From Phycisphaerae bacterium (GTDB taxonomy: Bacteria; Planctomycetota; Phycisphaerae; FEN-1346; JAACEH01), in contig JAWLHX010000001.1 in the NCBI GenBank assembly GCA_041690105.1, positions 14,939 to 78,938 of the forward strand: a DNA stretch of 64,000 nt. Direction: 5' to 3'. Shown piece by piece: positions 30,228 to 60,437 of the stretch (within the stretch, counting starts at the first letter, position 1; each line of letters starts with the position of its first letter). The notes beneath the pieces are model-generated. The model did no database searches. It was given only the letters and a program-made list of their open reading frames with translations, and was not told where the DNA came from. The position numbers and the translations under genes are program-made.

Positions 30228-30577
30228 TTACCTCATTTCCTCTGCTGGCAACTCCCTGCGCAAGGACTCGCAAGGTCGGACAACCCTCACAGCCCGGAGG
30301 CCGCAGACAACCGGCGGTCTCCGCCCCGTCTGTTGCGAGCACAATTGTCGTGACAGCGTCACGACAGTCCCCTTCAACCACACCTAATTCCGAATACTGG
30401 CCAGAACAGCCAGCCCCCGGACTGTTCGGCGCGTCTTGGCATGATGATCGGGTGGAATTATAGAGTCTGCAAGCATCTTTCACAAGCATTCCCCTTCACC
30501 CGACTTCGCCAGCATCCTACAGGTAGCGATCTGGAGATTCGCTTGGCAACCATGTCGCCTTCTGGCATAATCCCGGC

Positions 30578-33500: not shown

Positions 33501-33673
33501 CCTCCACCGACCCGGCGGGCGAGTGGAACGAGACTTGGGCTGAAGCCTGGCTCGACACCGGCGCCGGCCAACCCCTGCCGTCAGATCATCCCTTAATGGC
33601 ACGCCGCAGCGAGATTGATGAACGCGTCCTAGAGAACCTGCTGCGGCTCAATCAGACGCGGTCAGCACGGTGA
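30578..33673 (+). CDS. MmeI-family Type IIL restriction-modification enzyme (single-polypeptide endonuclease plus gamma-class N6-adenine methyltransferase plus TRD)
   Basis: N-terminal nuclease region GFADVWWRGKFGWEYKRKG...YRQLCQYREALENPPLLVVCDISRTEIHTNF aligns with MmeI GFVDLFWPGILLIEMKSRG...VLVCDFQRFRLTD, with D-x(n)-ExK intact. Also GAHYTS, motif I LDPACGSGNFL and motif IV IIGNPPFLG. Confidence 0.85.
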   Translation: MATLDRPATIGPAQFISKWQRVALPERAASQEHFLDLCRLLGQPTPAEHDATGAEYTFEKGVSVTAGASKGAKGDGGFADVWWRGKFGWEYKRKGKYKDLADAYRQLCQYREALENPPLLVVCDISRTEIHTNFTGTAKQVHTVLLEQMDQPESLSLLRRVFTAPDSFRPTITVQKVTEQVARDIAHLAQCLRERGHEPHAAAHFLMKCMFCLFAEDVGLLPGNLFSRILDTWHNQPLDLQKRLAELFTAMSRGGAFGVEAIPWFNGGLFDDTPPIELTSIEAEALRAAARQDWSSVEPAIFGTLFERSLDPSKRAQIGAHYTSRDDILLIVNPVVMAPLRRQWAGVQQEVERQLARRKALDPRDRSRKADATRRTVSKAVSKAIQDMLHQLAAVRILDPACGSGNFLYVAIQQLLELEKEVITFAAKPEIGIGFFPHVRPTQLKGLELNPYAAELAQVVIWIGYLQWMRDNGFNMPRDPILEPLQSIECRDAILDLPPITGGLAAAGGTQAASPNVLTTPAEWPEADYIIGNPPFLGSKVFRQNGLTDDYIGAMYAAYDLPKTSDLCCYWFEQARRVIERRPHVRVGLLATQGIRGGDNRKVLERIKKTGDIFMAWSDREWVLDGAAVHVSMVGFDAGNQTERRLDGHDVQSIHADLTSATDTTIVRRLSENRGIAFMGDTKGGAFDIPRAEARWLLAQPNPTGKPNSDVVRLWVNGSDVTRRPRAMFIIDFGCDMPMGEAAGYEGPFKAVDTYVKPERIKNRRRAYAERWWIHVEPRPAMRASLPCQRYLCTPNVTKHRLFAWLSAEVLPDHQLIAFARSDDYFFGVLHCSIHELWARRMGTQLREVESGFRYTPTTCFETFPLPWTPGKEPTDSPLHARIAEAARILNEQRERWLNPPEWLDEVAAAVDREDDFHDVPVNVRPLIRQSAIMARAANHRELKRRTLTNLYNERPTWLRLAHQQLDRAMLAAYASTDPAGEWNETWAEAWLDTGAGQPLPSDHPLMARRSEIDERVLENLLRLNQTRSAR

Positions 33674-34374: not shown

Positions 34375-37300
34375 TCAGCCCTTTGCTGTGACAAGTTTGT
34401 CAGCAATGAATTCGTCCGCATCAACATAAGCCTGACTCTTGAGCCAGTGCAGGCGTTCACGCGGCTTGAACAAATACGTGGCCTTTCCATCATAGACCCT
34501 CAAGCCACGTTCAAAGTAAAGCCACTGCCGGTGCTGTTGCAGCAGACTCCTGTAAACGTTGCTTAGCCCCTTGTCAACGCCGCTTTGTACGTCAATCTCG
34601 GAGGCCAGGGCCGCCGCTCGCCCTTCAAGATATTCAACTCTCACAACACCCAACCGCTCCGCGTACCCAACCGTGACCCGATGCTGTTGTTGAGAGGTTG
34701 CTCCGACAAAAACATCTAACTCTTTCTTCAATGTCTTGGCATACGCCCTGATCTCCGCCTCGCTTGCCGGTTGGGTGGCAGCCTCTGCAACCTTGCCTTG
34801 ATTCAAGTCCATCCGCACATTCAGCAGATCGTGAACCAGCACTTGCTCGGCTTTGCTGAGGCCAAGCAGAGAGAACACCATGACATTCACTTCATGCTCA
34901 AGCTCTCTCATGCGATCAGGGCGTTGATTCTGGGCGAGAAGTGGTTGCCCGGAGCACTGAGAACGTCGAAACTGTTCTTCTGCTACGAGCGCCCTCTGGA
35001 GCTTGGCCAGTTCTGAGACCTCCTTCTCGCTCTGGCCATCGAATGGCACAGGAAGTGTAAGCAGGGTATCCAAGGTAGTGGTGGATTTCTGCACGCCCCA
35101 CTGCGCCGACATAAAGAACTGATGGTACTGAGCAAAGTCTGAGCACAAGAAAAGCGATAAGGCCCGAAGCATCACCTCGTTCTCTTGGGTGGATGATATC
35201 CCCAATTGACCATGTGGCACCACGACAAAAGAATTTGAAAAAACGGCGAATCGCCTCGCGCAATCAACCACTACATGCGGTGGGCGGCAGATCCTCAGAG
35301 GGGCAGCACCGCCGCGAGTTCTGATATAAGCCCAGTCGCTTGGAACAGTGTCCAATGCTTCCTTGGGAAAGGCGTAGATTCTTCCGCACTCTTTCAGGGC
35401 CTGCATGAGGATTCTGTTTTGGCCGATGACTTCGGGAGCGGGTTTAACGGCCTCCTCTCCGTCCCGCGTGCGCAATTGCGGTCCTTCGTGAACGAGAATG
35501 TTTTTCGCTGCGGCAAAGTCGGCGAAGGTTGGGAATTGCGAGGCAAGCGAATCCAGAACATGCTTGTCCCTCGCCGTTCCCCACATGGCCAGTTTCCACG
35601 GTAATCCGTCGCCGGTTGCCGCATCTGCGACGGGTACCTCCCGCACTTCGGCCCGGTTGACGGCGATGCTCCAAGTGTCTTGTCGGCTGTGGGCCTCTGG
35701 AGGGCAGTTGGCAATCTGATTAACCACCATCGGCGAGTAGGTCAAAACAGTTTCCTGTCCGTCTCGCTCTTCGCCTTCGCCAAGACCTGTGTAAAAGAGA
35801 GCCGCTGCGGGCAGCCGCGATCTACCGGCAAACAGAACCTCAGCTAGATTGGCGAAGTTCGCGATACACCAAACGCGGTTGCGTTTGAAAAACTGCTGCC
35901 GCATTAACTTCGCGGTCTTGGAGGACTTGAAAAGAAGCATCGCAGGTAACAGTAATCCCACCACCCCATTCCCCGTGGTAAAGTCAGCAGCTTTCCACGC
36001 AAACGCCTCTGCCAGTTGCTTGTCGCCGGTCGGGCAGCGTGAAGCGTTCTTGCCCATCCAGGTGAGTGCGTGCTTGTCGCTGGGGGTCAGGTTTTTGTGA
36101 AGTCTCTTCCATGGAGGATTGCCCACCACCCAATCGAACCGGGCCAGTGGTTCGGTCGGCGGCGTGCCAAGCTCCGGATCGAAAAGACCACCAGGAAGAT
36201 GCACTATGTTCCGGTCCCGCAAAGTAGGGAGCTTGAAGTTTGGCGAACCCATCAGGTCGGGCGGACGCACATAGTCCAGCAGCGTCATGACGAGGCTGAG
36301 TTCCGTAACGCTGCACGCATCAGCATCTACGTCAAGACCAAAGATGCTGCTGGTGAGCAGCTCTCGCAGGTCAGAAGGCCGGAGGCGCCGGCTCGGGCTG
36401 GCCGCAACCTTTCGCTCTATCAGCCTGCGATAGCACTGGACAAGAAACGCGCCAGACCCGCACGCCGGATCGAACACCTTCATTCCAGTCTTCAGCGGAT
36501 GCTTGGCGTCGAGTTCATCCAAAATGAAGTTGACAAGATGAATCGGTGTGTAGTAGGCCCCCAGGCCCTTTCCTTGGCCCTCGGAGTGCAAGAACTGCTC
36601 GTACACCACCGAAAGAGTTTCAATCGGGATATGCTGAAAATCGTAGGCCTGAAAATCAAGATGCATCTGGCCAGTGAGCGGCTCGTCTCCGCTGAATGTG
36701 CCGGCCACTTTGCGCACATGCTCTTGGTCAGGAGATGCCTTGCCCGACTTTGGAATCGGGAAGATGCTACCATTGAGCCAGTCCGCCAGCCTGTCAACGA
36801 CAGAGAAAAGCCCATGGCGTGAAGCGTTTGGTCCGAATACAGACTCTTGTTTGATACCCCAGTCGTCAAGTCGCCGCGGCGAAAGTATGCCGCGATCCCG
36901 CAAGTAGCTCAGGTACACATACTGTCCAATGATCGCGTGTGCCGTTTCTTTGGGCAGATCGTGGTTTCGCAGCCATTGCCCCAACAGTTTCAGGTTCTCC
37001 AACAATTTCCAGTCAACCCTTGTCTCCGGGCTTACCGTTTGCGACCAACGCCGCCATAGCGTCCCCTGGTCAATCGCCTGGGCCTTGAAATCCGCGAACT
37101 TGTCCAAAACATCCGCGGCATCGCTGACTACGCTCACGAGAGACTGGTCTTGGGGGCCGGCCCCCGTAGCGTCCGGCGTGTCATACCTGAAACCGCGATA
37201 AAGGCGGAAATGAGTCGGGGTGCTCATCAGCAGGAAAGGGGCAACGTTCTGGTTCCAGACAAATCTGTGTATCTCTGCTGCCTCAGCGTCCGAGGCGGCC

Positions 37301-37509
37301 TCACAGACATAGACGAGTGGCACAATTGAACCGCCTGTAGCCTGATGACCGGATGGCTCATTCAGGACATAGACGCCGCGCAGTTTGCAGGTTTCCGTTG
37401 CCCGGCGGAAGATATGGGAGTACCCGGGGTGTTTCTCCAGATGGTCTCCCCATAGGAATGCCGACGATTGATCGTACTCAAGGAGGCTCAGAAGATTAGT
37501 CAAATTCAT
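34375..37509 (-). CDS. MmeI/PglX-like gamma-class N6-adenine DNA methyltransferase with degenerate N-terminal nuclease motif
   Basis: Start MNLTNLLSLLEY. Motifs GAYYTPIHLV, FDPACGSGAFL and VVGNPPWKRL. The N-terminal region ...PLVYVCEAASDAE...FRLYRG aligns to the MmeI nuclease region but lacks the catalytic D and K. Confidence 0.7.
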   Translation of the reverse strand: MNLTNLLSLLEYDQSSAFLWGDHLEKHPGYSHIFRRATETCKLRGVYVLNEPSGHQATGGSIVPLVYVCEAASDAEAAEIHRFVWNQNVAPFLLMSTPTHFRLYRGFRYDTPDATGAGPQDQSLVSVVSDAADVLDKFADFKAQAIDQGTLWRRWSQTVSPETRVDWKLLENLKLLGQWLRNHDLPKETAHAIIGQYVYLSYLRDRGILSPRRLDDWGIKQESVFGPNASRHGLFSVVDRLADWLNGSIFPIPKSGKASPDQEHVRKVAGTFSGDEPLTGQMHLDFQAYDFQHIPIETLSVVYEQFLHSEGQGKGLGAYYTPIHLVNFILDELDAKHPLKTGMKVFDPACGSGAFLVQCYRRLIERKVAASPSRRLRPSDLRELLTSSIFGLDVDADACSVTELSLVMTLLDYVRPPDLMGSPNFKLPTLRDRNIVHLPGGLFDPELGTPPTEPLARFDWVVGNPPWKRLHKNLTPSDKHALTWMGKNASRCPTGDKQLAEAFAWKAADFTTGNGVVGLLLPAMLLFKSSKTAKLMRQQFFKRNRVWCIANFANLAEVLFAGRSRLPAAALFYTGLGEGEERDGQETVLTYSPMVVNQIANCPPEAHSRQDTWSIAVNRAEVREVPVADAATGDGLPWKLAMWGTARDKHVLDSLASQFPTFADFAAAKNILVHEGPQLRTRDGEEAVKPAPEVIGQNRILMQALKECGRIYAFPKEALDTVPSDWAYIRTRGGAAPLRICRPPHVVVDCARRFAVFSNSFVVVPHGQLGISSTQENEVMLRALSLFLCSDFAQYHQFFMSAQWGVQKSTTTLDTLLTLPVPFDGQSEKEVSELAKLQRALVAEEQFRRSQCSGQPLLAQNQRPDRMRELEHEVNVMVFSLLGLSKAEQVLVHDLLNVRMDLNQGKVAEAATQPASEAEIRAYAKTLKKELDVFVGATSQQQHRVTVGYAERLGVVRVEYLEGRAAALASEIDVQSGVDKGLSNVYRSLLQQHRQWLYFERGLRVYDGKATYLFKPRERLHWLKSQAYVDADEFIADKLVTAKG

Positions 37510-37865
37510 GAACTGTGTCCCCTGTACCGCGGACGCGCGGCACTCCCAAGTTATTCTAAGAAACCACACGGAGAATGCAATACTTAGAGCTACACCGTCT
37601 TGTTTTTGTGTGCTACCGCCACCTGCTGCTCCCGCATGTACGGCACCAGCTTGTTGAGCAGGTCGTGCCGCTTCTCGCAGTCGCAGGCCGAGGGGGACGC
37701 TGCGGCCGGATCGGCCCGCGTAGGAGTCCCCAGAATGCGGTTTTTCGCCTCAAGTCTCAAAGTCTCATGTTCTTTCGTCCTGCACCCCCTAGGGTCACGA
37801 GTATGAACGGTTCATCCGCAATTACCATAGCCAGTTCTGCGGACGCTGGGAGCGGTAGCCGGCCC

Positions 37866-38168
37866 TCACGTCGTGTCCGCAACGATCCCTGCAAACCGCT
37901 CAAAATCCGGCACCGTGCCTGTCTGCTGATACGCCTTCCGCGCCTCCCGGATCGCATCATGCAGTTCCGGCCAGGCCTGCGATTCTTCCTCGGCCTCGTG
38001 CAGGTGGCCGATGGCTAGGAGGCGGTGGGGGTAGCCGTTCTGGTGCTCGGTGATAAGCACCCAGGCGGCGCCCAAGTGCTTCTCGCAACACTCCATGCAC
38101 GACGGCCGCGTTACCTGCTTCCGCCGCGACAGCGGCCCCAGGCGGTGTTTTTCGAGATTATTGGCCAT
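37866..38168 (-). CDS. Small hypothetical protein near the left end of the prophage
   Basis: MANNLEKHRLGPLSRRKQVTRPSCMECCEKHLGAAW...; no recognisable domain. Confidence 0.35.
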   Translation of the reverse strand: MANNLEKHRLGPLSRRKQVTRPSCMECCEKHLGAAWVLITEHQNGYPHRLLAIGHLHEAEEESQAWPELHDAIREARKAYQQTGTVPDFERFAGIVADTT

Positions 38169-38184
38169 TTTACTGGATCCGCAA

Positions 38185-39153
38185 TCACCCATCGCAGCAC
38201 GCTCCACAGTCAATCAGGTTTCTGTACACCTTGGCCACAGGGGCTTCGGGATTGTCAATCACGTCGGCGATCTCGTAGCACGGCACCAGGTCGCCGGGGT
38301 TGGCTGGCTCATCAATGATAATTACGCCGCTGGCGCTCGACGGTACACGGCGCTCCAGGATGCAGCCGTGGATGCCGACGTTGCGGTCATATGGGGTCTG
38401 GCCATCGAAGATGTACCAGCAGTCCGGCGGGGTTGGCTTCTCGCCTGCCGGCCGGTTGAGCGGCTCCACCCAGTCGGCTAGTTCCATGTCGTGCCAGGTA
38501 ATCTTCAGGACGAAGTCGTCGCACCCCTCGGGCGGCGGGCCGGCGTAGGGGCAGATGCCGATGTTGAAGACTCTGTCTTCGCCGTACGGCGCATAGCCCG
38601 AGGCGGTATCGTAGGCGATGCTGACGCCATTTTCGCCGCTCCAGTTCATTGTGCAGGTGCCGTGGCCCGGCCCGGAGCAGGTATGGTTGCCGACGGCGAA
38701 CTTCGGCGGGCAGTAATTGCAGTCGGGCCACTGGACGCCGGGCAGCGCGTCGCAATCACCCTCCTGCCAAGGGTGATTGGCCGGAAAGCGGGCCTCGTAA
38801 TTCCAGCCGCCCCAGACCTTGAGGTCGGTCTCGATGCCGGGGCTGGCGCAGCCATCGGCCTCCTCGCAGTAGCGGAGGCGATAACACTGACCGCCGCGGA
38901 CGATCAGCACGTCCTGGGCCCACAGGTGACCATCGGCTTCGGGCGCGAAATCGAACTCGCGGAAATCATTGCGGCAGCAGATCGGCGCGCCGCCCCCGCA
39001 CGGCTCCAGGACGAAGACCGGGAAGCACGGCATGAGCAGCACGGGCGTCAGGCCGCACCCGTTGACGAGATGGCCGCCCGCGTTCTTAACCAGGTGACCC
39101 GTGGTGGCGGACTTCTTCAGGTGGGCCACGTCAGCAGTCCTCCGGGGTGTCAA
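38185..39153 (-). CDS. Cys-rich phage distal tail/tip protein
   Basis: Last gene of the tail module; 30+ cysteines (CPPKFAVGNHTCSGPGHGTCTMNW...). Confidence 0.45.
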   Translation of the reverse strand: MTPRRTADVAHLKKSATTGHLVKNAGGHLVNGCGLTPVLLMPCFPVFVLEPCGGGAPICCRNDFREFDFAPEADGHLWAQDVLIVRGGQCYRLRYCEEADGCASPGIETDLKVWGGWNYEARFPANHPWQEGDCDALPGVQWPDCNYCPPKFAVGNHTCSGPGHGTCTMNWSGENGVSIAYDTASGYAPYGEDRVFNIGICPYAGPPPEGCDDFVLKITWHDMELADWVEPLNRPAGEKPTPPDCWYIFDGQTPYDRNVGIHGCILERRVPSSASGVIIIDEPANPGDLVPCYEIADVIDNPEAPVAKVYRNLIDCGACCDG

Positions 39154-40780: not shown

Positions 40781-43147
40781 TTACTGTTCGAACGTCAACC
40801 CGCCATCACCGGCCATATCCACCAGCCGGTCGGTATTCTCGGCAGTCTTCTCCGCCGCCTTGGCGGTCCGCTCCGCGGCCGATGCACCGCCGATGCTGAG
40901 GCCCTGCAGAGCGACGGCGCTGAAGGTGCCGATGGTCGCGAACTTCGACTGCACCTCGGCCACGCCCTTGGCCAGCCACGGGAACATATCCGTGTTGGGC
41001 TGTATCTTCGGCCCGCCCTGCTTCGCCCCGCCTGGCTTGCCCGGTGCCTCTTGCCCCGCCGGCGTCTGCTTCTTCTTCGTCTCGGCGATGGCGTCCTGCC
41101 ATTCCTTCCGGGCCGCGTCAACTTCGTCCTGGGCCGCGGCGATCCGCTGGTCGTATTCATCGTCAAGGGCCTGCTTTTTGGCCTCCTGCTCGGCCGTGAG
41201 CTGGTCCATGACGGCATTGTGCAGCGATTCCTCCTGACGACGTTCGGCGTCGCGCTGGGCCTCGCGGGCCCGGACGGCGCCATTGGCCTGCTCGTCAACC
41301 TTCTTGTTCTCCGCCTCCAGCCAAGCGTCGGCCCCGGCGTTGGCGGTATTGGAGTCGAAGCTGTCGTCAAAGAGACCCTTCAGCCAGTTCCAGGACTTCG
41401 AGACCTGCGCCCCCGCCCAGTTCCAGGCTTTGCCGATGCCCTGGCAGAACCGCGTCCAGGTGGTCGAGAGGAAGCTGGTCGTTTCGATCCAGGCAATCTC
41501 CAGCCCGTGCCAGACCGTCTCGGCCGCCCGCACCGCTCCGTAGAAGGCGTCGTAGGCCAGGCGGATGAAGAAGTTGCGGAAGTCGAGCCATAGCTTCGAG
41601 AGCCAGGCGATACCCTTCTGCCACTGGAGCTTCAGCGTCAACCACAGCACCTTGGCCGCCAGACCGATGTCGCCCGAAGCCAGGGCCGCACCGATGGCGC
41701 CAAAGGCCTCGCCCGCGTCGGCTGCCAGATCGCCGAAGACGCCCTTCAGCCATTCCAGAGCCTTGCCGCCCGCGCCGGTCCAGTAGAGGATGGCCGCACC
41801 AAGCGCCACGACGCCCACAATCACCAGGCCGATGGGCGAAAGGATCGCCCCGAGAATTGAGCCCGCCACGCCGAGCACCGTGCCCAGCACTGTGACAATA
41901 GTTGCCAGCCCGCCGATGGCCGTGGCCACCACGCTGGCGGCCAGCCCGAGGCCGATGAGTACCGCGCCCACTGCCGCCACGCCGACCGCCACTTTGGCGA
42001 TGATGACCACCAACGGCTTGTTGGCCTTGACGAATCCGGTCACAAAGCCCGCCGCTTTGCTCAGCCAGTCAGCAATGTCCGAAATGGCCGGTGCCAAAGC
42101 GTCGCCGATAGAGAGGGCAATGCCCTCAACCGCCGACCAGAACCGCCGCAAGGCTCCGCCGATGCCGGCATCCATCTCCGTGGCCGTCCGCGCCGCCGTG
42201 CCTGCCGCATTGTCGATGGCCTCGTTCAGCCGGTCGAATGACGCCCCCGTCAGCTTGGCTGCACCGGCAATGGCCCGGTCGCCGAAGAGTTCCGACAAGA
42301 GCGACACGCGCTCGGCCTGCCCCATGTTCTGCATGGCCTGGCCCACATCCGAAAGGATCGCCGAGACCGTCCGCAGGTTGCCGCCGGCATCGGTTACAGC
42401 CACGCCCATTCCTTCCAGCGTCTTCTGCACCTGGGGATTGGCGATCTGGAGCATGACCCGCTTCAGGGTGTTGCCGGCCATGGAGCCCTTGATGCCGAAG
42501 TTGGCCAGTGCTCCCAGCGTCTTGGCGGTCTCCTCCAGCGTCAGGCCGTAGGTCGAGGCCACCGGGGCAGCGTACTTCATGGACTCGCCCAGATCGGTGA
42601 TGGTCTGGGCGGAGCCATTGGCCGTGGCCGTCAGCACATCGGCCACGCGGCCCATCTCGGCAGCCTCCAGATCGAAGGCCCGCAGCGACGCTCCGGCGAT
42701 GTCGGCGGCCTCCGAAAGCTCGACACCCGTAGCCCGCGAGAGGTTCAGGATGTCGCCGATGGAGGCGTTGATCTCGTCCGACGAGAATCCCGCCCGCCCG
42801 AGTTCGGTCATGCCGGCGGCCACCTGGGCGGCGGTGAAGCTGGTGGTGCGGCCCAGTTCCTTGGCTGTCTCGGTGAGCATCTCAAACTGTTCGGCCGAGG
42901 CCCCGGTGACGGCCTTGACCGTCCGCATCTGGTCGTCGAAGGCCATAAAGACGCGGGTCGCCAGGGCGAAGCCGCCGGTCATGGCCGCCCCGGCAGCGAA
43001 GACTCGCGTGCCAGCCGAACGCAGCGTGCGGCCGAAGGCCTGAAGCTTCCGCTGCGCCGCCCGCAGCCCGCGCACGAGCTTTGAGTCGTCGGCGAAGAGC
43101 TCGACGAAGGCGCGACCGGCGCGGATGGAACCAGCGCTGTTTGCCAT
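40781..43147 (-). CDS. Phage tail tape measure protein (TP901-type core)
   Basis: FTAAQVAAGMTELGRAGFSSDEINASIGDILNLSRATGVELSEAADIAGASLRAFDLE...TDLGESMKYAAPVASTYGLTLEETAKTLGALANFGIKGSMAGNTLKRV, Gly-rich TM helices and C-terminal coiled coil. 788 aa. Confidence 0.85.
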   Translation of the reverse strand: MANSAGSIRAGRAFVELFADDSKLVRGLRAAQRKLQAFGRTLRSAGTRVFAAGAAMTGGFALATRVFMAFDDQMRTVKAVTGASAEQFEMLTETAKELGRTTSFTAAQVAAGMTELGRAGFSSDEINASIGDILNLSRATGVELSEAADIAGASLRAFDLEAAEMGRVADVLTATANGSAQTITDLGESMKYAAPVASTYGLTLEETAKTLGALANFGIKGSMAGNTLKRVMLQIANPQVQKTLEGMGVAVTDAGGNLRTVSAILSDVGQAMQNMGQAERVSLLSELFGDRAIAGAAKLTGASFDRLNEAIDNAAGTAARTATEMDAGIGGALRRFWSAVEGIALSIGDALAPAISDIADWLSKAAGFVTGFVKANKPLVVIIAKVAVGVAAVGAVLIGLGLAASVVATAIGGLATIVTVLGTVLGVAGSILGAILSPIGLVIVGVVALGAAILYWTGAGGKALEWLKGVFGDLAADAGEAFGAIGAALASGDIGLAAKVLWLTLKLQWQKGIAWLSKLWLDFRNFFIRLAYDAFYGAVRAAETVWHGLEIAWIETTSFLSTTWTRFCQGIGKAWNWAGAQVSKSWNWLKGLFDDSFDSNTANAGADAWLEAENKKVDEQANGAVRAREAQRDAERRQEESLHNAVMDQLTAEQEAKKQALDDEYDQRIAAAQDEVDAARKEWQDAIAETKKKQTPAGQEAPGKPGGAKQGGPKIQPNTDMFPWLAKGVAEVQSKFATIGTFSAVALQGLSIGGASAAERTAKAAEKTAENTDRLVDMAGDGGLTFEQ

Positions 43148-43200
43148 TAACCCACTCCAGACTGTTGCGTCCTGCCATTTGGTATTGCTATCATTGTGGC

Positions 43201-43746
43201 ATGACGATTTCAGAGATAAACTTCACGGCACTCTCGGCTTTTGCAACAGTGGCACGCGAATACATCATTTTCATTGATTCCTTCAGCTCAGGCAGACCTG
43301 ACAGGCTCTATCATCGACTTGAGGCACTATTACAGCATGTGCATCAGGCAATTGTGCCCGTTGAAATCGAAATTCCGAAAACTAAGCATGCCAAGTCAGA
43401 ATCCTTGGCTATGAGCACCGATGAGGCTGCTGCTGTCTCTCGCATGGTTCATGAACTCGTTGCGCCCGAGTCTTATGCGCTGCTTGAGCGGCATGAGGAG
43501 TTTGCTGATGCCGATATGAAAGGCAAAGACCCTGCCGCTACTCGAGCATTCATGCTTTTCGACGATCTGGCTGATATCTACCGCGACGTGCACCATGGCT
43601 TGGCCGTGTGGAATGTCGGTACACCCGACGCTCAAGCGGAGGCCGCATGGCAGTGGCGGTGGGGATATGAGAACCACTGGGGCGAGCACCTTTTTCGGGC
43701 CATGCTGACGGTTCACGAAATGCGTTATTGGCTTGTTGAAGAATGA
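43201..43746 (+). CDS. Moron: opposite-strand, lower-GC hypothetical protein inserted between tape measure and tail chaperone genes
   Basis: ATG 43201 (MTISEINFTALSAFATVAREYIIFIDSF...). The local region 43150-43450 is visibly AT-richer. It is the only plus-strand gene in the tail module. Confidence 0.55.
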   Translation: MTISEINFTALSAFATVAREYIIFIDSFSSGRPDRLYHRLEALLQHVHQAIVPVEIEIPKTKHAKSESLAMSTDEAAAVSRMVHELVAPESYALLERHEEFADADMKGKDPAATRAFMLFDDLADIYRDVHHGLAVWNVGTPDAQAEAAWQWRWGYENHWGEHLFRAMLTVHEMRYWLVEE

Positions 43747-43756
43747 CGGCCGAATG

Positions 43757-43945
43757 TCAACCCTTTCGGGCCTCCGCCCACTTCGCATCCGCCGCATCGG
43801 CCCGCGAAAACGCCGCGTCCACCTGCTCACGCGTGACCTGCCGCTGGCCGTTCTCGATGGCCCGCGACACCAGGCCCAGCAGTTCGTTGGCGATGTAGAG
43901 CACCAGCAGCGCGTCGAGCATTTTTCCCTCCTGTCTCCCGCTCAT
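43757..43945 (-). CDS. Small phage protein (hypothetical)
   Basis: 62-aa ORF coupled to the lipoprotein gene. Confidence 0.3.
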   Translation of the reverse strand: MSGRQEGKMLDALLVLYIANELLGLVSRAIENGQRQVTREQVDAAFSRADAADAKWAEARKG

Positions 43946-44286
43946 TGCCCGGCCTCCCTCTTCTCGGATTCAACCTTCAGCCGCTCCTGGAGCAGGAGCC
44001 GCACGGCGTCATTGAACTGCAGCGCCGCCGATTCCGTCGGCAGCCCGTTTTCGGCCGCCTCGTGCCAGCTATCAAGCGCCGCGCGGGCCAGCGAACGGTA
44101 TACTTCGATCCGCTCCGCCGTTGCATCGTCAATCTTTCCCGCCTGCCGGGCCTCGGCCAACACATTGACTGTCGAGGCATAGCCATCGACCGCCGTCACG
44201 AGCGGCAGGCGCGGATCATTCTTAACTGCGCAGCCCACCAGCAGCACGCACAGCGCCAACACCATCAGCATCAATTGCTTCATCAT
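43942..44286 (-). CDS. Phage-encoded lipoprotein
   Basis: GGAGGG then ATG: MMKQLMLMVLALCVLLVGC (lipobox LVGC). Confidence 0.5.
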   Translation of the reverse strand: MMKQLMLMVLALCVLLVGCAVKNDPRLPLVTAVDGYASTVNVLAEARQAGKIDDATAERIEVYRSLARAALDSWHEAAENGLPTESAALQFNDAVRLLLQERLKVESEKREAGQ

Positions 44287-44296
44287 CCGCCCTCCG

Positions 44297-44644
44297 TTAC
44301 AGGTTGCCCGCCGCTTCCAGGTCTGCATGCGTCACCTGAATCCCGTTCTTCAGGTCGGCCACCTCGGCCGACGTGGCCACGCGCCCCCTGGCCTGCTCGT
44401 ACACGGCCACTACCATCTTCAGGGCCGCATCCAGCCGGGCCAGGCCCGCGTGCGGCGTCTCGTCGGGGATCTCCTTCTCGGCCCACTTCACCGCCGAGAT
44501 GATTTCGCCCTCGTACTGCTGCCACAGAGGCTTGGCTGCATAGAGCCGCCCCAGCAGCCACAACAGCGCCGTCGCCAGCAACGTGATCGCCGCCGGAGAA
44601 TTTACCACCGCCCATAATCCCGATAACACTCCCGTCCAGTTCAT
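44297..44644 (-). CDS. Small membrane protein (phage)
   Basis: Two hydrophobic helices in the N-terminal half. Confidence 0.4.
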   Translation of the reverse strand: MNWTGVLSGLWAVVNSPAAITLLATALLWLLGRLYAAKPLWQQYEGEIISAVKWAEKEIPDETPHAGLARLDAALKMVVAVYEQARGRVATSAEVADLKNGIQVTHADLEAAGNL

Positions 44645-45383
44645 TGCTGCTTTCCTTTCTTCGCAAAGGCCTTCAGAATGCTTATGTTTGCCGCCGCAAG
44701 GGGTATGCCGCGACGCTCCGGGCGGCGCAGCGGATGAAAATCAATGGGCCTGGCCGCAGTCTGCCGCTTCGGATCGCGGTTGGCGTTGAAGATCATCGCC
44801 AGCACGGTGCTGGTGTGATCCCAGGCCTCCTGCCGCTTCGCCTCGGCCATCAGGGCCAACTCGCGAAGCGTAAGCGGGCCGGGATCGACTCCGACGACCC
44901 CCGCCAACTGCCAGATCAGCCGCCAGCAGGCGTCTTTGCTCCCGAGGCCGTCTCGATCTCGGCCAGCTGCTTTTCGACCTCCGCCATGAGCCGCGGGTCG
45001 TCGAGCCGGCTCTCCACCGCCCGAAGCGCCCTCTCCTCCAGCACCCGCAGCTTGCCGAGGGCCTTCGTGAGGACCGCCCGCTTCGGGCTCGGGAAAAAAC
45101 CCACCATCTCCTCCAGGAAGGCAGCGGTCGCCGCCTCGATCACGTCGCCGCCCATGGCCCGGCCGAAGTCCTCGTCCGAGATGCCCTTGGCGTCGAGCTC
45201 CGGCTTGCAGACGGCATAGAGCACGTCGCATAGGAGAATCGGATCGTTGGCCAGACGGCCCAGCAGGTCGCCCTCGAAGATCTCCAGCAGGTTCACCCCG
45301 CACAGCGTCCGCACCCGCTTGATGGCGTCCACGTTGACGGCCACGGTCCAGGTGCGGCCGGCGTTATCAATAAATGTTTTCAA
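44641..45383 (-). CDS. Tail assembly chaperones G (44916..45383) and frameshift extension T (44641..~44930)
   Basis: Two overlapping frames directly upstream of the tape measure gene. The 155-aa G-like product ends ...EIETASGAKTPAGG. The alternative frame extends ~95 aa further (...LTLRELALMAEAKRQEAWDHTSTVLAMIFNAN...). Confidence 0.55.
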
Positions 45384-45397
45384 TCAAGGTTCCTTTC

Positions 45398-45847
45398 TCA
45401 GGCTGCGGCGATGGTCTTCCACTGCGGCGGGTTCGCCGAGTAGGTCGGCTTCAGCGTCACCTTGACCGTCAGGGCTTCCTCCAGCGGCTCGGAGCGGCTG
45501 AAGTCAATCACCGCCATGTCGGCCCACAGGCCCTGGCGTCCCGCCTCGGTGACATCCCCGTCCATGGCCGCGATGCCGATGGCCGTGTCGTTGAAGTAAG
45601 CCGCCTGCAGCGCCGCGAAGCCGGTGTCGTCGGTGTCCCAGACCATCTCGAACTCGATGGAGCCTTCCTTCAGCGTGCCCACGCTGGCCTTCCAGCCGTT
45701 GTTGCCGCGGGTCGTCACGTCGGCCTCGCCCTTCTGGAGACTGACGTCCACGTTCTTGACGTTCGTCAGCTCCGTCCAGAGCGGCGTGCCGCCAATGCCG
45801 TCCGCGCAGAAATACAGTTTTGCGTCCTTGCCCAGTACGATGCTCAT
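45398..45847 (-). CDS. Phage major tail protein
   Basis: 149 aa, MSIVLGKDAKLYFCADGIGGTPLWTELTNVKNVDVSLQKGEADVTTRGNNGWKA...; position upstream of the G/GT chaperones. Confidence 0.7.
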   Translation of the reverse strand: MSIVLGKDAKLYFCADGIGGTPLWTELTNVKNVDVSLQKGEADVTTRGNNGWKASVGTLKEGSIEFEMVWDTDDTGFAALQAAYFNDTAIGIAAMDGDVTEAGRQGLWADMAVIDFSRSEPLEEALTVKVTLKPTYSANPPQWKTIAAA

Positions 45848-49293: not shown

Positions 49294-49629
49294 TTACTGG
49301 CTGAGCCGCACGCGGACAGTGGTGTCGGCATCGGCCGCAGTCTTGACGACTTTGCCGATCAGCTTATTGGCACCGGTTTCAGAATCCGCCTGGACCACGC
49401 CGGGATCGGCCTTCCAGTAGACAGTGGTGCCGACTGTGATGCCGGTCCCGACGCCGGTCGCCTTCGGAAAGTCGAAAACTCCCGTCACCGAGAGGCTGCC
49501 CAGCGCATCGGCTGCGATCGGCGTGCGGGCCACGCCCACCAGATCCCCCTGAACAACGACCGCCCCGGCCGCCACCGCGGAACTCGGGGTATAATCCACA
49601 GCGCCGCCTTCATGCACAAAAGTCGCCAT
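49294..49629 (-). CDS. DUF2190-family phage protein
   Basis: MATFVHEGGAVDYTPSSAVAAGAVVVQGDLVGVA... is characteristic of DUF2190 proteins found next to HK97-type capsid genes. Confidence 0.6.
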   Translation of the reverse strand: MATFVHEGGAVDYTPSSAVAAGAVVVQGDLVGVARTPIAADALGSLSVTGVFDFPKATGVGTGITVGTTVYWKADPGVVQADSETGANKLIGKVVKTAADADTTVRVRLSQ

Positions 49630-49711: not shown

Positions 49712-51787
49712 TTACGCCTCGCCCTTGGCCTTTACACCGCCCCGCGGGTCCTGCAGAGCCACGCCGAAGTCGTGATAACCGCGCATCTGGACGCCGAGGA
49801 CGTTGAAGTCGGCCTCCGCCGTCTCGATGGTGGGCGACTCCTGGCCATTGAGGAACGCCACCTCGATGACCGGCAGGTCGCCCGGGTCGGCCAGCAGGTA
49901 CCAGGCTTTTGAACTTGCGCCCGTGTAGCGGCTGTTGCTCAGGTAGCGGCTGACCTCGGTCCGGAACTTCCCGGCGTGCGGGTTGGCCACCGGGTACTTG
50001 GTGCTGGAGGTCGTATCGCGAATCTCCAGACTCTTGTGCAGCACCATGGCCATGGCCGACAGAGCCGTGGGTACCAGCAGGATGCTGGGCATGATGCCGA
50101 TCGGCTTGTTGTCGGCGTCGACCTGATCCATGAAGGTCACTTCGCCCTTCGTCAGACCATCGATCCCCAGCACTGTGTCGGCGCCACTGACGTAATTGGC
50201 GTTACCGGCGGAGAAAAAGCTGCTGTTGGCCAGGAATACCGACCAGAAGACGTCGTTGATCTTCAGCCCCGAGCCGCGGCCCAGCTTCCTGGGCACCGTG
50301 GTGATGGCCCCGAGATCATCATTTATGATGTCGCGGCGATCCACTGAGAGCATCAGGCCGTAGGTGTCGGCCCTGTTGGCGTAGCTTTCCTCCCCGAGCG
50401 TTCCGTGCTTCAGTTCGCCGCCGGGGGCCACGATTTCATACTGGTCCTTGCCGACCAGCCGGTAGCTGGTGACCGTCTTGAAATCCCGCACGCTGCGCAG
50501 AGCGCAGATGTTCCGCCAGACCCGCTCCACGCTGAAGAAGCCATCAAGCAGAAACTTGTTGGCCACGTTCGACAGGATGCCGCCGATGTCGACCGTCGAG
50601 AAACCAGCCTGAATGTCGGCAAAGGCATGGCGCAGCACCGCCCGGCTGTCGCGGAACGTGCGGCCCGTGTAGCCGTTGGCCCAAGCGGCCTCCAGCAGCA
50701 GTTCCTGCAGCCCCAGGCCACCCCGGAAGCGCTTGTCAGCGGCGTCGAGGGTCTTTTCGTCGAACTCCTTCTCCACGCCCTCAAACCTGGCGGAGATCAT
50801 GCAGGCCGCTTCCAGCAGACGCCCGCTCATCGGGTTATCCGGTACGTGGGCCGCAGGCGCCTTGGGCCTTGAGGCCCTGAGTACTTCCAGTTCTGTCTTC
50901 GTCTCGTCCCAGCCCTCCTCGATGGCTTTGGCCTCGATTTCGGCGAACCTGCCGTTGCAGATCCGCCGGATGGCGCTGATGCGGTTGGTTTCAAGCAGCG
51001 CCCGGGCACGGATCTCCTTCACCGGATCGGCCGCCTCCACCGTGCCAGCGGTCTGCTGCTCCAGAGTCTGAACAGGGGCCGCCACCTGACCCTTGCCTTC
51101 GCCGGTCGCCGTCTGCTCGTGGCCTTCCACACTGTTCTGTTCCGTGACAACCTCGGTCGTCTCGTTCGTCACCACGTCCATATGCTCTTTCTCCCTGGCG
51201 GCTCCTGTGCCCGCCGCGATACTGGCTGACGTCTGATCGTCCGCCCCGTTGCCCACGAAACTCACTTCCGACAGTTGCGACCGCCGAGCCACATTGATCG
51301 GCCCGCTGACCTCCCTGCCGTTGACATTCAAGGTCCTGCCTTCGGGAACGAACTCCACCTCCTGCACGCTCGCTCCGATTGAGGCCTGCCACGGATAGCC
51401 ATTTTCGGCGTCGGCCACCACCTCACGGGCCGCGGCACTTGTCGAACTGACCACACCGGTCACCCGTAGCCGGCCACCGAGTACGTTCACAGCCTCCAGA
51501 TGGCCGACCCGCGCCGTGCGATTGTGATCGAGGTAGACCTTGGCTCCGCCACGGATCGACAGGCCGTCCAGATCGACAACCACCGGAAAACGCCAGCCCG
51601 CGAGGGTCAGGGGACCGCCGGTATAGGCATCCATGTGGAACTTCCGCGGCCGGGCGGGCATGCCTTCGCCACCAGTGACAGCCTCGGCCGCCTCAATATT
51701 GATGTCGGCGCTCAGCGTCAGTTCACGCGGCACGTCGGGTTTCTCCGTCAGCATTCTGGTCATCTTCATCCTTCTCCTCGTTTTCAT
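49712..51787 (-). CDS. Prohead protease - scaffold-like linker - HK97-fold major capsid protein fusion
   Basis: N-terminal ~200 aa are protease-like, followed by an acidic low-complexity linker. The C-terminal ~400 aa carry capsid-like segments (...ARFEGVEKEFDEKTLDAADKRFRGGLGLQELLLE...SYRLVGKDQYEI...). Confidence 0.7.
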   Translation of the reverse strand: MKTRRRMKMTRMLTEKPDVPRELTLSADINIEAAEAVTGGEGMPARPRKFHMDAYTGGPLTLAGWRFPVVVDLDGLSIRGGAKVYLDHNRTARVGHLEAVNVLGGRLRVTGVVSSTSAAAREVVADAENGYPWQASIGASVQEVEFVPEGRTLNVNGREVSGPINVARRSQLSEVSFVGNGADDQTSASIAAGTGAAREKEHMDVVTNETTEVVTEQNSVEGHEQTATGEGKGQVAAPVQTLEQQTAGTVEAADPVKEIRARALLETNRISAIRRICNGRFAEIEAKAIEEGWDETKTELEVLRASRPKAPAAHVPDNPMSGRLLEAACMISARFEGVEKEFDEKTLDAADKRFRGGLGLQELLLEAAWANGYTGRTFRDSRAVLRHAFADIQAGFSTVDIGGILSNVANKFLLDGFFSVERVWRNICALRSVRDFKTVTSYRLVGKDQYEIVAPGGELKHGTLGEESYANRADTYGLMLSVDRRDIINDDLGAITTVPRKLGRGSGLKINDVFWSVFLANSSFFSAGNANYVSGADTVLGIDGLTKGEVTFMDQVDADNKPIGIMPSILLVPTALSAMAMVLHKSLEIRDTTSSTKYPVANPHAGKFRTEVSRYLSNSRYTGASSKAWYLLADPGDLPVIEVAFLNGQESPTIETAEADFNVLGVQMRGYHDFGVALQDPRGGVKAKGEA

Positions 51788-53213
51788 CCTGCGGCTCGGC
51801 CTTCGTCCGCGGCTGCGCCTCGGCCAGGCCCAGTTCCTTCATCAGGGCCAGCTCCTTGGCCCTCTGCCGCAATTCCGTCTCCCAGTCCTTGCCCTGCCGG
51901 GCATATTCCGTGGCCAGCGTGGTTGTGTTGGATGCCAGGCGAGTGGCCTGAGCATTGGCTTCCTTGGCCGGATCAACGTGTTCACGGCCGTCCCAGAACC
52001 ACTGGTGCGGCGCATTTTCCGGCAGCGCCCATCGGTACACCCTCACGGCCTCGGCCAGCCACGCCGTCAGAATCCTGTCCAGCACCAGCGTCTCAACGTG
52101 CGATTGCTCAACCCTGATCGATTTGTAGTAGGTCTGGTGATCCAGTCGCCCCGAGGCATAGTTGTAGCCGCTGGAGTTGCAGGCGGCGATGTTGAACGGC
52201 ATGTTCAGGCAGCGGGCGATTTCATTGAGAATCTCGTGCTTGAACTCGCTGTAAGTCGTGGCCGGCTGCTCCGCCTTGATCTGGCTCGGCTCCCACCCTT
52301 CCGGGCCGAAAACAGCCATGTTCGGCTCGAACTCCATGGTCACGCCGGCATCGACTTCAGCCGCCTCGCCACCGGTGGGGGCGTTTGTCTTCATGAAGAT
52401 CGCCACGTTGGCCGCCGACTCGGCCGCCGCGATCACCGCCAGCGTATAGCGCCTCAGCTGGGCAAAGAGCGGCAGGGCAGGCAGGATGTCTGGCAATCCG
52501 CGTGACTGGCCCGGGCGGTCCTGCCGCAACCAGTGCACCACGGCCTCCGCGGGAATGCGGTCGTAGTCCCGGCCGAAGCAACCGGCACCGTCACCGGGGT
52601 GGGCCTTCAGAACGTGGTATTCCACGGGGTTGCCTGCATCATCAAAGACAATTCCGTCAACCGCATGCCTCCCCGGCGTTCGGTCCGGCGTCGTCACCTG
52701 GTCGGCCTCGACCAGCCGCAGGTCAAGCTGCACCGCGGTATCAAGGGCCGGATTATCAAAGAGCACGGCAAAGGCCTCGCCGTCCTGCGCGCGGGCCATC
52801 CGCATCGTCCGCAACTTGCCGGCCAGATCGACCTCTCGCGCCCAGCGGCAGAACTCCTGCTCGATAACGTGGTTCAGACTGCTATTGAGTCCGTCGCCGA
52901 GCAGCATCTGCAGCCGTGGTCCGGTGCCGATGACGTCATTGGCCAGTGTCAGCACGATGCCACGGGCATAGCTGTTGTTGGCCACTTCATACCGCGCCCG
53001 GCTCCGCAGCACGCGCCGCACTTCCGGGCTGGCAGCCGCGTTGGCTGACAGATGATCGGCATTGGCCCAATGGCGACGATTGTCGGGCGTGGTCTGGGCG
53101 GAGTCGAATCTGGCCCGGACAAACAGTTGCTGCACGGCCGTAATGGCCCGCCGGCGGCGTCTTTCCCCGGCACCCGACCACACGCCCTTGAACTTGTCGA
53201 TAATGCGTCCCAT
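51723..53213 (-). CDS. Phage portal protein (lambda-like family)
   Basis: Start MGRIIDKFKGVW. Size and acidic C-terminal tail are typical of portals. Overlaps the capsid fusion gene start. Confidence 0.8.
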   Translation of the reverse strand: MGRIIDKFKGVWSGAGERRRRRAITAVQQLFVRARFDSAQTTPDNRRHWANADHLSANAAASPEVRRVLRSRARYEVANNSYARGIVLTLANDVIGTGPRLQMLLGDGLNSSLNHVIEQEFCRWAREVDLAGKLRTMRMARAQDGEAFAVLFDNPALDTAVQLDLRLVEADQVTTPDRTPGRHAVDGIVFDDAGNPVEYHVLKAHPGDGAGCFGRDYDRIPAEAVVHWLRQDRPGQSRGLPDILPALPLFAQLRRYTLAVIAAAESAANVAIFMKTNAPTGGEAAEVDAGVTMEFEPNMAVFGPEGWEPSQIKAEQPATTYSEFKHEILNEIARCLNMPFNIAACNSSGYNYASGRLDHQTYYKSIRVEQSHVETLVLDRILTAWLAEAVRVYRWALPENAPHQWFWDGREHVDPAKEANAQATRLASNTTTLATEYARQGKDWETELRQRAKELALMKELGLAEAQPRTKAEPQDENEEKDEDDQNADGETRRAA

Positions 53214-53427
53214 GCTCACACGGCCCCCGGCGGCACGATCTTCACTTTCCGTAGCCCCATGTTGCGGGATGACATGGCCCGCTTGCCCGCCAGATACTTG
53301 TCCGCCGTAATCTGATCCGCCAGCGAGTGCTGCTCCATGCTGCCGGAATCGCCGCTGGCTTTGCGCGGCCCGGCGGCATTCTGCTGAATTGCGTTTTCCA
53401 GTTCTTCCGGCACCTTTATCTCCTTTG

Positions 53428-53502
53428 GACGCGGGAGTTGGACGCGAACCAGCGCAATCGCCTTTTGAGCCCCGCGCTCTGCCAATTGAGCTATCCCGCA
53501 AG
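53428..53502 (-). tRNA. tRNA-like element with encoded CCA; anticodon stem does not pair (probable pseudo-tRNA)
   Basis: Minus strand: TGCGGGA-TA-GCTC-AATTGGCA-GAGC-G-CGGGG-CTCAAAA-GGCGA-TTGC-GCTGG-TTCGCGT-CCAAC-TCCCGCG-T-CCA. Acceptor (7 bp with one G.U), D-arm and T-arm fold well. The anticodon loop is CU-CAA-AA. Positions 39-43 (GGCGA) cannot pair with 27-31 (CGGGG). Confidence 0.35.
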
Positions 53503-53647
53503 CGGACAACGCGACCGTTTGTTGTCCGGTCTGGTTGTGTGGCCTATCTATATCGTCGTCCGAATGTCACGCCAGCGGAAACAGAGGCGACGGAATTGAG
53601 GATTCCAGATCTGGAAAGAAACTGTGCCGAAGGTTATCCTGTTGTCC

Positions 53648-54562
53648 ATGGACTCCAGAAAACAGACATCCCAATACATCCTGCTTGCCGCGGTGATAGT
53701 CGCAGTGAGCGCCGTTGTGTTGCTTTGCGCCGTCGTGGAATGGCAGCAGCCTTCGAGACAACCCACAGTACCTGCAGTTGCTGACGAGCCACGAGCCGGC
53801 GATCCGGTCGTACAGACTGGCCATGATCCTATTCCTGAAGCCTTGCCGGCAACGGCCGCGGATCGCATACATGCCTATGCCGGGCTGCCCCGCTCCACAG
53901 GCCCTGTGACGGTGCTGGTGAACAGCGGCTATGTCGTCGGTTATTGTGACACGCGTCAGAATCCCCTGTGGGTCTGTTACCGTCTATCGCGAGTCGCTCC
54001 GTCCAGGGCTCCGCCCAGGCCAAGCCGCTTCATTACCGACATGCGCACCCAAGCCCGTGTCACGCATGATGCCTACACCCACAGCGGCTACGACCGCGAC
54101 CATATGGCTCCAAACTACGGCATCGCCACTCGCTACGGCGTTGAAACCCAGATTGAGACATTTCGGATGTCCAACGTGGTGCCGCAGACGCCTACGCTCA
54201 ACCAGGGTATTTGGCGGCGACTGGAGCAGCTTGAGGCAGACAAGTATGCCCAGGTGTTTGAGGATGTCTGGGTAATCACGGGCCCGATCTTCGGCGATGA
54301 TGCCCGAAGGCTGCCAAGCGGAGTGTTAATACCAGATGGCTGCTTTAAGATCATTCTGAAGGAGATCGATGGGCATCCGCATGTGCTGGCGTTCATCATA
54401 CCTCAGGACGTTACCACCAAGGCCATCCTTGAATCATATCTGACCAGCGTCAGGGAGATCGAGCGACTGACGGGACTGGATTTTCTGGCTGACCTGCCGG
54501 ACAGTCTCGAAGAGCTGTTAGAAATGCAGACAGCCACAGCCCTGTGGCTGTCGCCCAACTGA
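53648..54562 (+). CDS. Secreted DNA/RNA non-specific endonuclease (Serratia NucA-like)
   Basis: N-terminal signal anchor QYILLAAVIVAVSAVVLLCAVV. Catalytic region DRDHMAPNYGIATRYGVETQIETFRMSNVVPQTPTLNQGIWRRLE, with a DRGH-like motif. GTG 53624 is an alternative start. Confidence 0.8.
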   Translation: MDSRKQTSQYILLAAVIVAVSAVVLLCAVVEWQQPSRQPTVPAVADEPRAGDPVVQTGHDPIPEALPATAADRIHAYAGLPRSTGPVTVLVNSGYVVGYCDTRQNPLWVCYRLSRVAPSRAPPRPSRFITDMRTQARVTHDAYTHSGYDRDHMAPNYGIATRYGVETQIETFRMSNVVPQTPTLNQGIWRRLEQLEADKYAQVFEDVWVITGPIFGDDARRLPSGVLIPDGCFKIILKEIDGHPHVLAFIIPQDVTTKAILESYLTSVREIERLTGLDFLADLPDSLEELLEMQTATALWLSPN

Positions 54563-54968
54563 CGCCCGTCAAAGGATCGTTCGATCCCAGCCAACCGGCA
54601 GATTGGAAGTCCGCCGCCAAAGCCCGTATCTGATAACCGCCGACGATATAAGCCCGATCTGGCAAAGGATATCCACTGGTTCTGAATGCATTCCGAGAGA
54701 ATCCGCCGCTAATATTCGGGCCGCTCATCCTGCAGCCGCTTGGCTAGGTCCACCTGCCGCAAACATCGCACCGTCTGGCCAGAATGGCGGCGACTTTTTC
54801 GTTGCGCTCGCGCGCCGTCATCTCCGGCGGCTTCCTAAGAGCGTACATTGAGCCTCCTTGCCTATATACTGTTAACATACCGGAAACGAAAGCGGTTTGG
54901 TTGTAACGGGCCTTGGATTCCTGGGAAAAACTTGGGGAACCGGGAGAGGACAAGTGGTGAGTAGGTGA

Positions 54969-59339: not shown

Positions 59340-59425
59340 TGCTCGTTGATTATAGTGATGAAGCCAGAAATCAACAATACGAAGATGACAAAGTTCCGTA
59401 ACGTTGCCGTGCTACGCGTGCGTCC

Positions 59426-60376: not shown

Positions 60377-60437
60377 ATGAAGCCAAAAGGTTAAGCATTC
60401 ATCCAGTTAATTCCTGCAATAGCAGGCACTTATGTCA

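Follow-up and report, generated by a model that had tools for sequence, protein, structure and literature searches.

What is a plus-strand gene doing among the minus-strand tail genes of a prophage, and where did it come from? The question arises from a 64,000-nucleotide stretch of a Phycisphaerae bacterium contig (JAWLHX010000001.1; hereafter the window), in which a gene for a protein of the Pfam family DUF5063 (PF16702) lies between the gene for the tail assembly chaperone and the one encoding the tape measure protein (TMP) in a siphovirus-type phage. Judged in the sense of Juhala and Hendrix, as summarized in PMC3594210, the gene has the marks of a moron: it is extra DNA that close relatives lack at the corresponding position, and in composition it is unlike the surrounding phage genes. 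We consider it quite probable that it is a host-derived moron, a single-gene cassette inserted in the tail module; that it is a horizontally acquired accessory gene, not a structural component of the tail, is well supported. Elements of this kind are known and fairly ordinary, and nothing reported here overturns current understanding.

The DUF5063 gene and its slot in the tail module

IMG/VR contained 538 relatives of the capsid fusion protein of this phage, and 80 of these were compared with the window. Relative L013 (L177 is the same phage on a longer contig) aligned by blastn on both sides of the DUF5063 gene. Window positions 45416-43756, which begin at the major tail gene and end at the stop codon of a 62-aa gene, matched L013 1112-2785 with 81% nucleotide identity, and positions 43147-41946, from the TMP start codon on, matched L013 3304-4505 with 90% identity. 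Between these blocks, window 43148-43755 and L013 2786-3303 had no similarity. In the alignments, one breakpoint falls on the stop codon that ends the 62-aa gene and the other on the ribosome-binding site and ATG of the TMP gene; they delimit an exchangeable cassette, 43148-43756, made up of all the DNA between that stop codon and the TMP start codon. The same slot in L013/L177 is occupied by an unrelated opposite-strand ORF (open reading frame) of 148 aa with two hydrophobic helices (L013 2800-3246, minus strand). In relative L174 it is empty: a same-strand lipoprotein gene is followed by a 128-bp spacer and then by the TMP gene.

DUF5063 was present in none of the 80 relatives, in which the distance between the chaperone and TMP genes varied from 279 bp (the frameshift extension alone) to 2296 bp. 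In several relatives the position directly upstream of the TMP gene holds an unrelated ORF of lower GC on the strand opposite to the TMP gene. These ORFs, each on the minus strand of its own contig, included an HNH endonuclease (L041 15716-16465, E = 2.6e-5), an ORF with a weak GIY-YIG match (L094 15434-15901) and a P-loop protein (L043 7260-7802); homing-endonuclease-type genes may drive the turnover of cargo at this position. Coverage of the window by the 80 relatives in tblastx extended over 39-53.5 kb and 60-64 kb, dipped at 43-44 kb and was gone at 54-60 kb. Judging from these alignments, the reading of the chaperone-TMP interval as a recurrent cargo slot in this phage family is strongly supported. 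Beside the cassette we detected no direct or inverted repeats hinting at a transposon or att site, and no Rfam RNA family was found at the cassette. Elsewhere in the tail module, L013/L177 have about 270 bp of extra DNA between the major tail and chaperone genes (L013 838-1111 compared with window ~45410-45416), which by this alignment is another small indel site.

The gene itself occupies 43201-43746 on the plus strand, starts with ATG and encodes an acidic, soluble, all-helical protein of 181 aa (pI 5.21; 29 Asp/Glu against 16 Lys/Arg); an earlier note on this DNA had already pointed to a plus-strand gene for an acidic 181-aa protein in the region 43150-43760. A hydropathy scan of the protein found neither a transmembrane segment nor a signal peptide, the maximum 19-residue Kyte-Doolittle value of 1.16 being under the threshold of ~1.6. 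Alignment with homologs confirms translation from the ATG at 43201. Two other starts were rejected: an in-frame upstream TTG (43081) would make the ORF overlap the TMP gene, and the start in the apparent source annotation (P0001, 130 aa, internal GTG = V52) drops a conserved N-terminal helix encoded within 43201-43353; in both cases the N termini of the homologs fit ATG 43201.

The cassette carries little besides this gene. A divergent intergenic spacer of 53 bp (43148-43200, 49% GC) contains the ribosome-binding site of the TMP gene (GGAG, minus strand) and separates the DUF5063 ATG from the start of the TMP gene (40781-43147, minus strand, 788 aa), the next late-operon gene downstream of the cassette; the TMP matches PHROG tape measure families with E down to 3.7e-94. 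On the other side, the DUF5063 gene converges with the 62-aa gene (43757-43945, minus strand), and a spacer of 10 bp (43747-43756) lies between their stop codons. The claim of the earlier note that the gene is flanked by AT-rich DNA was hence overstated: the gene is low in GC, but its non-coding flanks amount to these 53 and 10 bp. Nor is it the only plus-strand gene between the terminase and the tail tip, as had been proposed, since an Endonuclease_NS gene lies on the plus strand at 53624-54562, between the portal and TerL genes.

Location alone, between the genes for the chaperone and the TMP, would favor an unrecognized factor that assists these two proteins in tail assembly and is a conserved component of tail morphogenesis. 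We hold this to be highly improbable. The gene is absent from all 80 relatives, including L013/L177 with their near-identical backbone and L174; it stands on the opposite strand and has host-like codon usage; its homologs are chromosomal; and no match was found in a library of predicted viral structures (best E = 0.2). The earlier note had implied no structural role and had named a homolog among conserved tail components as the finding that would speak against it; with no viral structural homolog, that proviso does not apply.

Even less credible is a spurious ORF, a non-coding low-GC spacer that happens to be open. Nothing beyond the atypical composition speaks for it, and the protein matched the DUF5063 profile over its full length (E = 4.9e-18, 66.5 bits against a gathering cutoff of 27; residues 11-176 of 181 aligned to profile positions 7-166 of 167). 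A search of 5.8 billion proteins returned 29 homologs, all of them PF16702 members, with E down to 1e-65 and identities of 50-61%; the best full-length homologs were 57-61% identical. All 12 invariant and all 11 near-invariant columns of the family are kept in the prophage copy, the retained residues including D121, D122, L123, G133, W150, W152, H159, W160, G161, H163, A167 and H172. The C-terminal motifs DDLADIYRD, WxWR, HWGxH and a terminal H are present, and are common to distant members from six phyla.

AlphaFold2, given the homolog alignment as input, produced a confident all-helical model (pLDDT 94.7, pTM 0.91), which also speaks against a spurious ORF. Its sole significant structural match in Foldseek was 3nrh_A, BF1032 of Bacteroides fragilis (E = 7.8e-5, probability 1.00, TM-score 0.70/0.80), and a profile search against the PDB also found 3NRH (E = 4.2e-12). 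This is the solved structure of the DUF5063 family itself and has no assigned function. The prophage protein thus resembles PF16702 and BF1032 in its full-length profile match, its helical-bundle fold and its DDLADIYRD and W-x-W-R...HWG-x-H...H motifs, and differs in being prophage-borne, whereas nearly all other members are encoded by stand-alone genes on chromosomes. A metal site formed by the HWGxH...H motif was considered and weakened, as the second His is missing from the members in Bacteroides, 3NRH among them. The protein is a soluble, cytoplasmic helical bundle by its model and hydropathy, and is probably dimeric, a dimer being suggested by the two chains in 3NRH and by a tandem-duplicated relative.

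Composition, relatives and origin of the gene

The phage is a prophage because its left flank is a chromosomal type II secretion (T2SS) operon (GspD/E/F/L, ~1-12 kb of the window), and the T2SS genes offer a sample of host sequence. The nearest named relatives of the host GspE were Phycisphaerae and Planctomycetota metagenome-assembled genomes at 62-70% identity; the host is a sparsely sampled planctomycete, Phycisphaerae-like. Codon usage was expressed as the per-codon log2 likelihood ratio (host/phage) of synonymous codons, and this measure separated host from phage genes cleanly. T2SS genes scored +0.03 to +0.38 and 14 phage backbone genes -0.03 to -0.29, while the DUF5063 gene scored +0.361. 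Its 62-, 128- and 115-aa neighbors were phage-like (-0.25, -0.12 and -0.13). By its host-like codon usage, therefore, the gene looks derived from a host-like genome.

GC content, which the earlier note had proposed to compute in 100-bp windows, did differ from the surroundings: it was 46-56% across 43150-43750 and 62-75% on both sides. The gene as a whole has a GC content of 0.520, compared with 0.646±0.020 for 546-bp windows of the phage block at 38.2-53.5 kb (z = -6.3), and is the lowest-GC stretch of that block, the minimum elsewhere being 0.599. The argument for foreign origin is carried by codon usage and the comparison with relatives, not by GC.

On long contigs the DUF5063 homologs were chromosomal, standing alone near genes for sugar metabolism, permeases, ribosomal protein S2, Rho and fatty-acid synthesis, with no phage genes close by, and mainly in Planctomycetota. 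Within 10 kb of 89 chromosomal DUF5063 loci we found no homolog of the structural proteins of this phage. In a neighbor-joining tree, the window DUF5063 branched within the Planctomycetota clade, where P0002/P0003 were its sister, with a normal root-to-tip length (0.853 versus 0.832±0.022). An origin in the host lineage agrees with its identity of 59-61% to chromosomal copies, because the host GspE likewise finds nothing above ~70%. Capture of a cellular DUF5063 gene from a host-like genome by a temperate siphovirus is strongly supported, and the donor was most likely the Planctomycetota/Phycisphaerae host lineage itself. What the earlier note had called a moron within the tail module accordingly stood up: it is swapped in L013/L177, missing in L174 and the other relatives, deviant in composition and codon usage, without viral structural homologs, and linked to chromosomal ones.

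Phage-borne members of the family are rare. DUF5063 occurred in 2 of 50,697 phage records. One is an Anaerosphaera phage from human gut (PV036460.1 51050-51496, or L172 2664-3110), whose 148-aa DUF5063 member (hhalign probability 99%, E = 3.5e-18) is annotated as hypothetical and lies in an accessory region at the genome end, beside a DNA invertase. The other, MT837929 (marked UNVERIFIED), contains a copy similar to BF1032 and may represent DNA of a Bacteroides chromosome. Patterns of the planctomycete clade found no DUF5063 in IMG/VR; divergent members would escape such patterns, so the rarity holds for close relatives.

Several observations weigh against the reading as a host-derived moron. 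Most chromosomal DUF5063 genes are themselves below the GC of their genomes (for example 0.54 versus 0.63, 0.62 versus 0.70, 0.49 versus 0.61); the GC dip is in part a property of the family and no proof of foreign origin, and low GC alone is for this reason weak evidence of foreignness. No donor closer than 61% identity was present among the 5.8 billion proteins. Clustering of flanking ORFs at 77 species-level loci revealed no family-wide partner gene; conserved neighbors were confined to one narrow Phycisphaerales lineage, where they represent plain synteny. PADLOC, NCBIfam and PHROGs gave no meaningful match for the protein, and domain fusions are uninformative on function, for almost all members of the family (~2,700 clusters at 50% identity) are stand-alone proteins of 150-200 aa and longer forms are rare (one tandem duplication and one probable gene-call fusion with a hydrolase fragment). 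A scan for consensus sigma-70-type promoters found none, although the tool does not cover planctomycete promoters, which are poorly defined, and hairpins between the convergent stop codons were no better than those of shuffled sequence (z -0.3 and -0.8); a promoter and a terminator of its own are classical attributes of a moron. As to the integrity of the prophage, homology to relatives stops near 37.9-39 kb, and the window ends within the phage.

The low GC of the family was seen at chromosomal loci L001-L012 and L095-L154, where the DUF5063 genes are typically 0.05-0.12 below their own genome despite housekeeping neighborhoods; it may reflect low expression or frequent transfer.

Expression and possible roles

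To arrive at the TMP gene, late transcription on the minus strand has to run through the cassette in antisense. By eye, an extended -10-like element, TGcTATCAT, was found at 43186-43194, just before the DUF5063 ATG; as a possible promoter, it would give a near-leaderless mRNA. The one terminator-like match by the convergent stop codons was weak and lay on the minus strand. In the scheme that we prefer, a temperate siphovirus captured a cellular DUF5063 gene, which now sits exactly between the 62-aa stop codon and the TMP start, opposite to the late operon. While the prophage is repressed, a promoter of the gene's own, located in the divergent 53-bp spacer, would drive its transcription; in lytic growth, antisense read-through from the late operon would dampen its expression, by analogy with the "noncontiguous operon" of phi80 taiEcA. 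The protein would not be part of the virion structure. Its benefit to the lysogen or the prophage might be an extra dose or a variant of a host function, or a role in conflict with other phages or with defense systems.

The DUF5063 family is spread over Bacteroidota, Planctomycetota, Acidobacteriota and Verrucomicrobiota. Since the gene is intact and conforms at every conserved position, the prophage copy most likely keeps the activity of the chromosomal DUF5063 proteins, and would thus do the same molecular job as its cellular counterparts. The only mention of a member in the literature places it in a weakly iron-responsive cluster of P. gingivalis that also includes an rRNA methyltransferase as well as a 3'-5' exonuclease (PMC10434189). 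For the family the finding is a modest lead: it is broad, has a solved structure, and a copy was captured by at least two unrelated phages.

The nearest precedent for the position is gene 15 of HK97, the first moron, which is likewise situated between the genes for the tail assembly chaperone and for the TMP, and whose homologs are mostly chromosomal (PMC3594210). The two genes share the slot inside the tail operon, their absence from close relatives, a composition unlike that of their neighbors, and chromosomal homologs that imply capture from a host. They have no sequence relationship, however. HK97 gp15 is a small inner-membrane superinfection exclusion protein related to YebO, from which it has strongly diverged, whereas the DUF5063 protein is a soluble protein of 181 aa without a transmembrane segment and a typical member of its family. 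For gp15, a promoter, a terminator and lysogenic expression have been established, whereas the scans at the DUF5063 gene gave neither promoter nor terminator. The DUF5063 gene is opposite in strand to the tail genes. The earlier note had named superinfection exclusion or host fitness as frequent roles of such morons; of these, exclusion by an injection block in the style of gp15 is unlikely for the DUF5063 protein, judging from its predicted sequence features, because it has no membrane segment. The locus provides a clean, comparatively documented moron in the slot of HK97 gene 15, from a phage of the poorly studied Planctomycetota, and suggests that siphoviruses in general may take up cargo at the chaperone-TMP junction.

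A second precedent concerns function and orientation. The taiEcA gene of phi80 is a divergently oriented defense gene that interrupts the late operon, is expressed in the lysogen and falls in expression once the late operon is switched on (PMC11364771), and Tab of JBD26 is a late-operon moron that targets the TMP of invaders (PMC10884400). Like these, the DUF5063 gene is an accessory gene within a late structural operon, and taiEcA shares its divergent orientation. It could be proposed that the prophage encodes a conflict factor, either a cytoplasmic defense against superinfecting phages (acting on tail assembly as Tab/Tai do) or a factor of anti-defense or self-immunity, with the reverse orientation switching the gene off during the prophage's own lytic cycle. 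The architecture matches the noncontiguous operon of taiEcA, morons such as Tab are known, and the surroundings fit: the same prophage carries a SIR2_2-TPR-PIN protein and a putative secreted nuclease, two type IIG restriction-modification enzymes adjoin the tail genes (all described below), and the unrelated Anaerosphaera phage keeps its DUF5063 gene in an accessory region.

There are differences from Tai and Tab as well. The sites are not the same, Tai lying upstream of the packaging module, Tab between terS and terL, and DUF5063 between chaperone and TMP, and no sequence or fold similarity of the DUF5063 protein to Tai or Tab was detected. Tai (taiEcA/atiEcA of phi80) and Tab come with a cognate counter-defense gene, whereas the DUF5063 cassette consists of one gene with none evident. 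We regard a conflict factor as unlikely. The adjacent 62-aa gene is no cargo-specific partner, as L013/L177 has it too but carries other cargo. PADLOC did not recognize the protein, its chromosomal homologs occupy housekeeping neighborhoods and not defense islands, with no conserved partner, and the scarcity of the family in phage records tells against it too. Finally, the prophage protein has not diverged from cellular copies at an accelerated pace, in contrast to HK97 gp15 and its relative YebO.

A bolder version would make DUF5063 proteins in general widespread, unrecognized cytoplasmic factors in phage-host or phage-phage conflict, for example sensors or inhibitors acting on phage late proteins or nucleic acids, with the prophage copy deployed as Tai is, on in the lysogen and silenced by antisense transcription. 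By analogy this can be entertained as a long shot. If true, a family of ~2,700 clusters would gain its first clue to function.

Could the gene instead be a neutral passenger, picked up by illegitimate recombination, perhaps with the aid of homing endonucleases, and harmless without being of benefit? The combination of this phage with this cargo was unique in all databases searched, the HNH and GIY-YIG-like ORFs in the same slot of relatives are typical of selfish elements, and the scans for promoters and terminators were negative. Against this, an unexpressed passenger is expected to decay, whereas the ORF is intact, all 23 conserved or near-invariant positions are kept and the branch length is normal; a very recent acquisition would look equally intact. 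Phage genomes are, moreover, under pressure of packaging size. We find a neutral passenger doubtful, and prefer a host-derived accessory gene in the tail module.

Neighboring genes and other cargo of the prophage

The siphovirus-type structural module runs on the minus strand from ~37.9 kb to the right edge of the window. Its genes include TerL (60632-62917), a lambda-family portal (51723-53501), a protease-capsid fusion (49712-51787), a decoration protein (49294-49629), and the major tail protein (45398-45847; PHROG major tail protein, E = 5.4e-12), all on the minus strand. The tail assembly chaperone (155 aa, 44916-45383), together with the overlapping frame for its frameshift ("T") extension, occupies 44641-45383 on the minus strand. 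The chaperone is kept beside the major tail protein in 38 relatives, and the peptide LTLREL...DPK of the frameshift extension is conserved in relatives. After the chaperone come three small backbone genes, the TMP gene and then distal tail genes.

The three small genes, all on the minus strand, belong to the phage backbone. The first (44297-44644) encodes a protein of 115 aa with an N-terminal hydrophobic helix, as read from its translation, and has homologs in L013, L015, L079 and L080. The second (43942-44328) encodes a predicted lipoprotein of 128 aa with an LVGC lipobox in its translation and homologs in L013, L072 and L073. The third is the 62-aa gene, which is convergent with the DUF5063 gene, has phage-like codon usage, is 94% conserved at the amino acid level in L013/L177 and has a similar form in L072/L073. 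No family match was found for the set (43757-44644), and small transmembrane proteins and lipoproteins analogous to it occupy the same interval in relatives. The set may be membrane-acting or lysis-like.

At the distal end of the tail module, a Cys-rich protein of 322 aa (38185-39153, minus strand) with phage-like codon usage had no family matches and is a candidate receptor-binding protein. Homology to relatives fades around its gene, except for a short match of 37902-38111 to L174.

Between the portal and TerL genes lies a block of ~7 kb (53510-60630) with a lower GC content of 0.57-0.58 and host-like codon usage. The junction is a second variable cargo slot, because the block has no homology to the 80 phage relatives, in which the TerL-portal gap is ~0.4-4.4 kb. 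An ORF of 1456 aa (54969-59339, minus strand) combines an N-terminal SIR2_2 domain (Pfam, E = 1.3e-17) with TPR repeats and, at its C terminus, PIN-TPR-GreABC (Pfam, E = 3.3e-14), and gave ThsA/Dsr1/LmuA-like SIR2 matches in PADLOC with E down to 1e-15; from these matches, it is likely a prophage-borne anti-phage defense protein. Beside it, the plus-strand Endonuclease_NS gene encodes a DNA/RNA non-specific endonuclease (Pfam, E = 1.3e-35) with an N-terminal hydrophobic anchor and host-like codons, and its product is predicted to be a secreted nuclease. Taken with the DUF5063 cassette, this island of SIR2-TPR-PIN and nuclease genes shows that the prophage family uses junctions of the structural module as cargo slots.

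Directly left of the last phage-like genes are two large MmeI-like type IIG restriction-modification enzymes, at 30578-33673 on the plus strand and 34375-37569 on the minus strand (PADLOC REase_MTase_IIG, E = 3.4e-259 and 1e-46 for the two enzymes). They may be prophage cargo or part of a host defense island. Farther left, two very large minus-strand ORFs of 2355 and 854 aa (16940-26538) had no PADLOC match, and the 854-aa ORF, the one scanned against Pfam, had no match there; they include the lowest-GC stretches of the window (~0.48-0.53). Near the two restriction-modification enzymes, the minus-strand region at 28768-30489 gave a weak match to a SIR2 protein associated with prokaryotic Argonaute.

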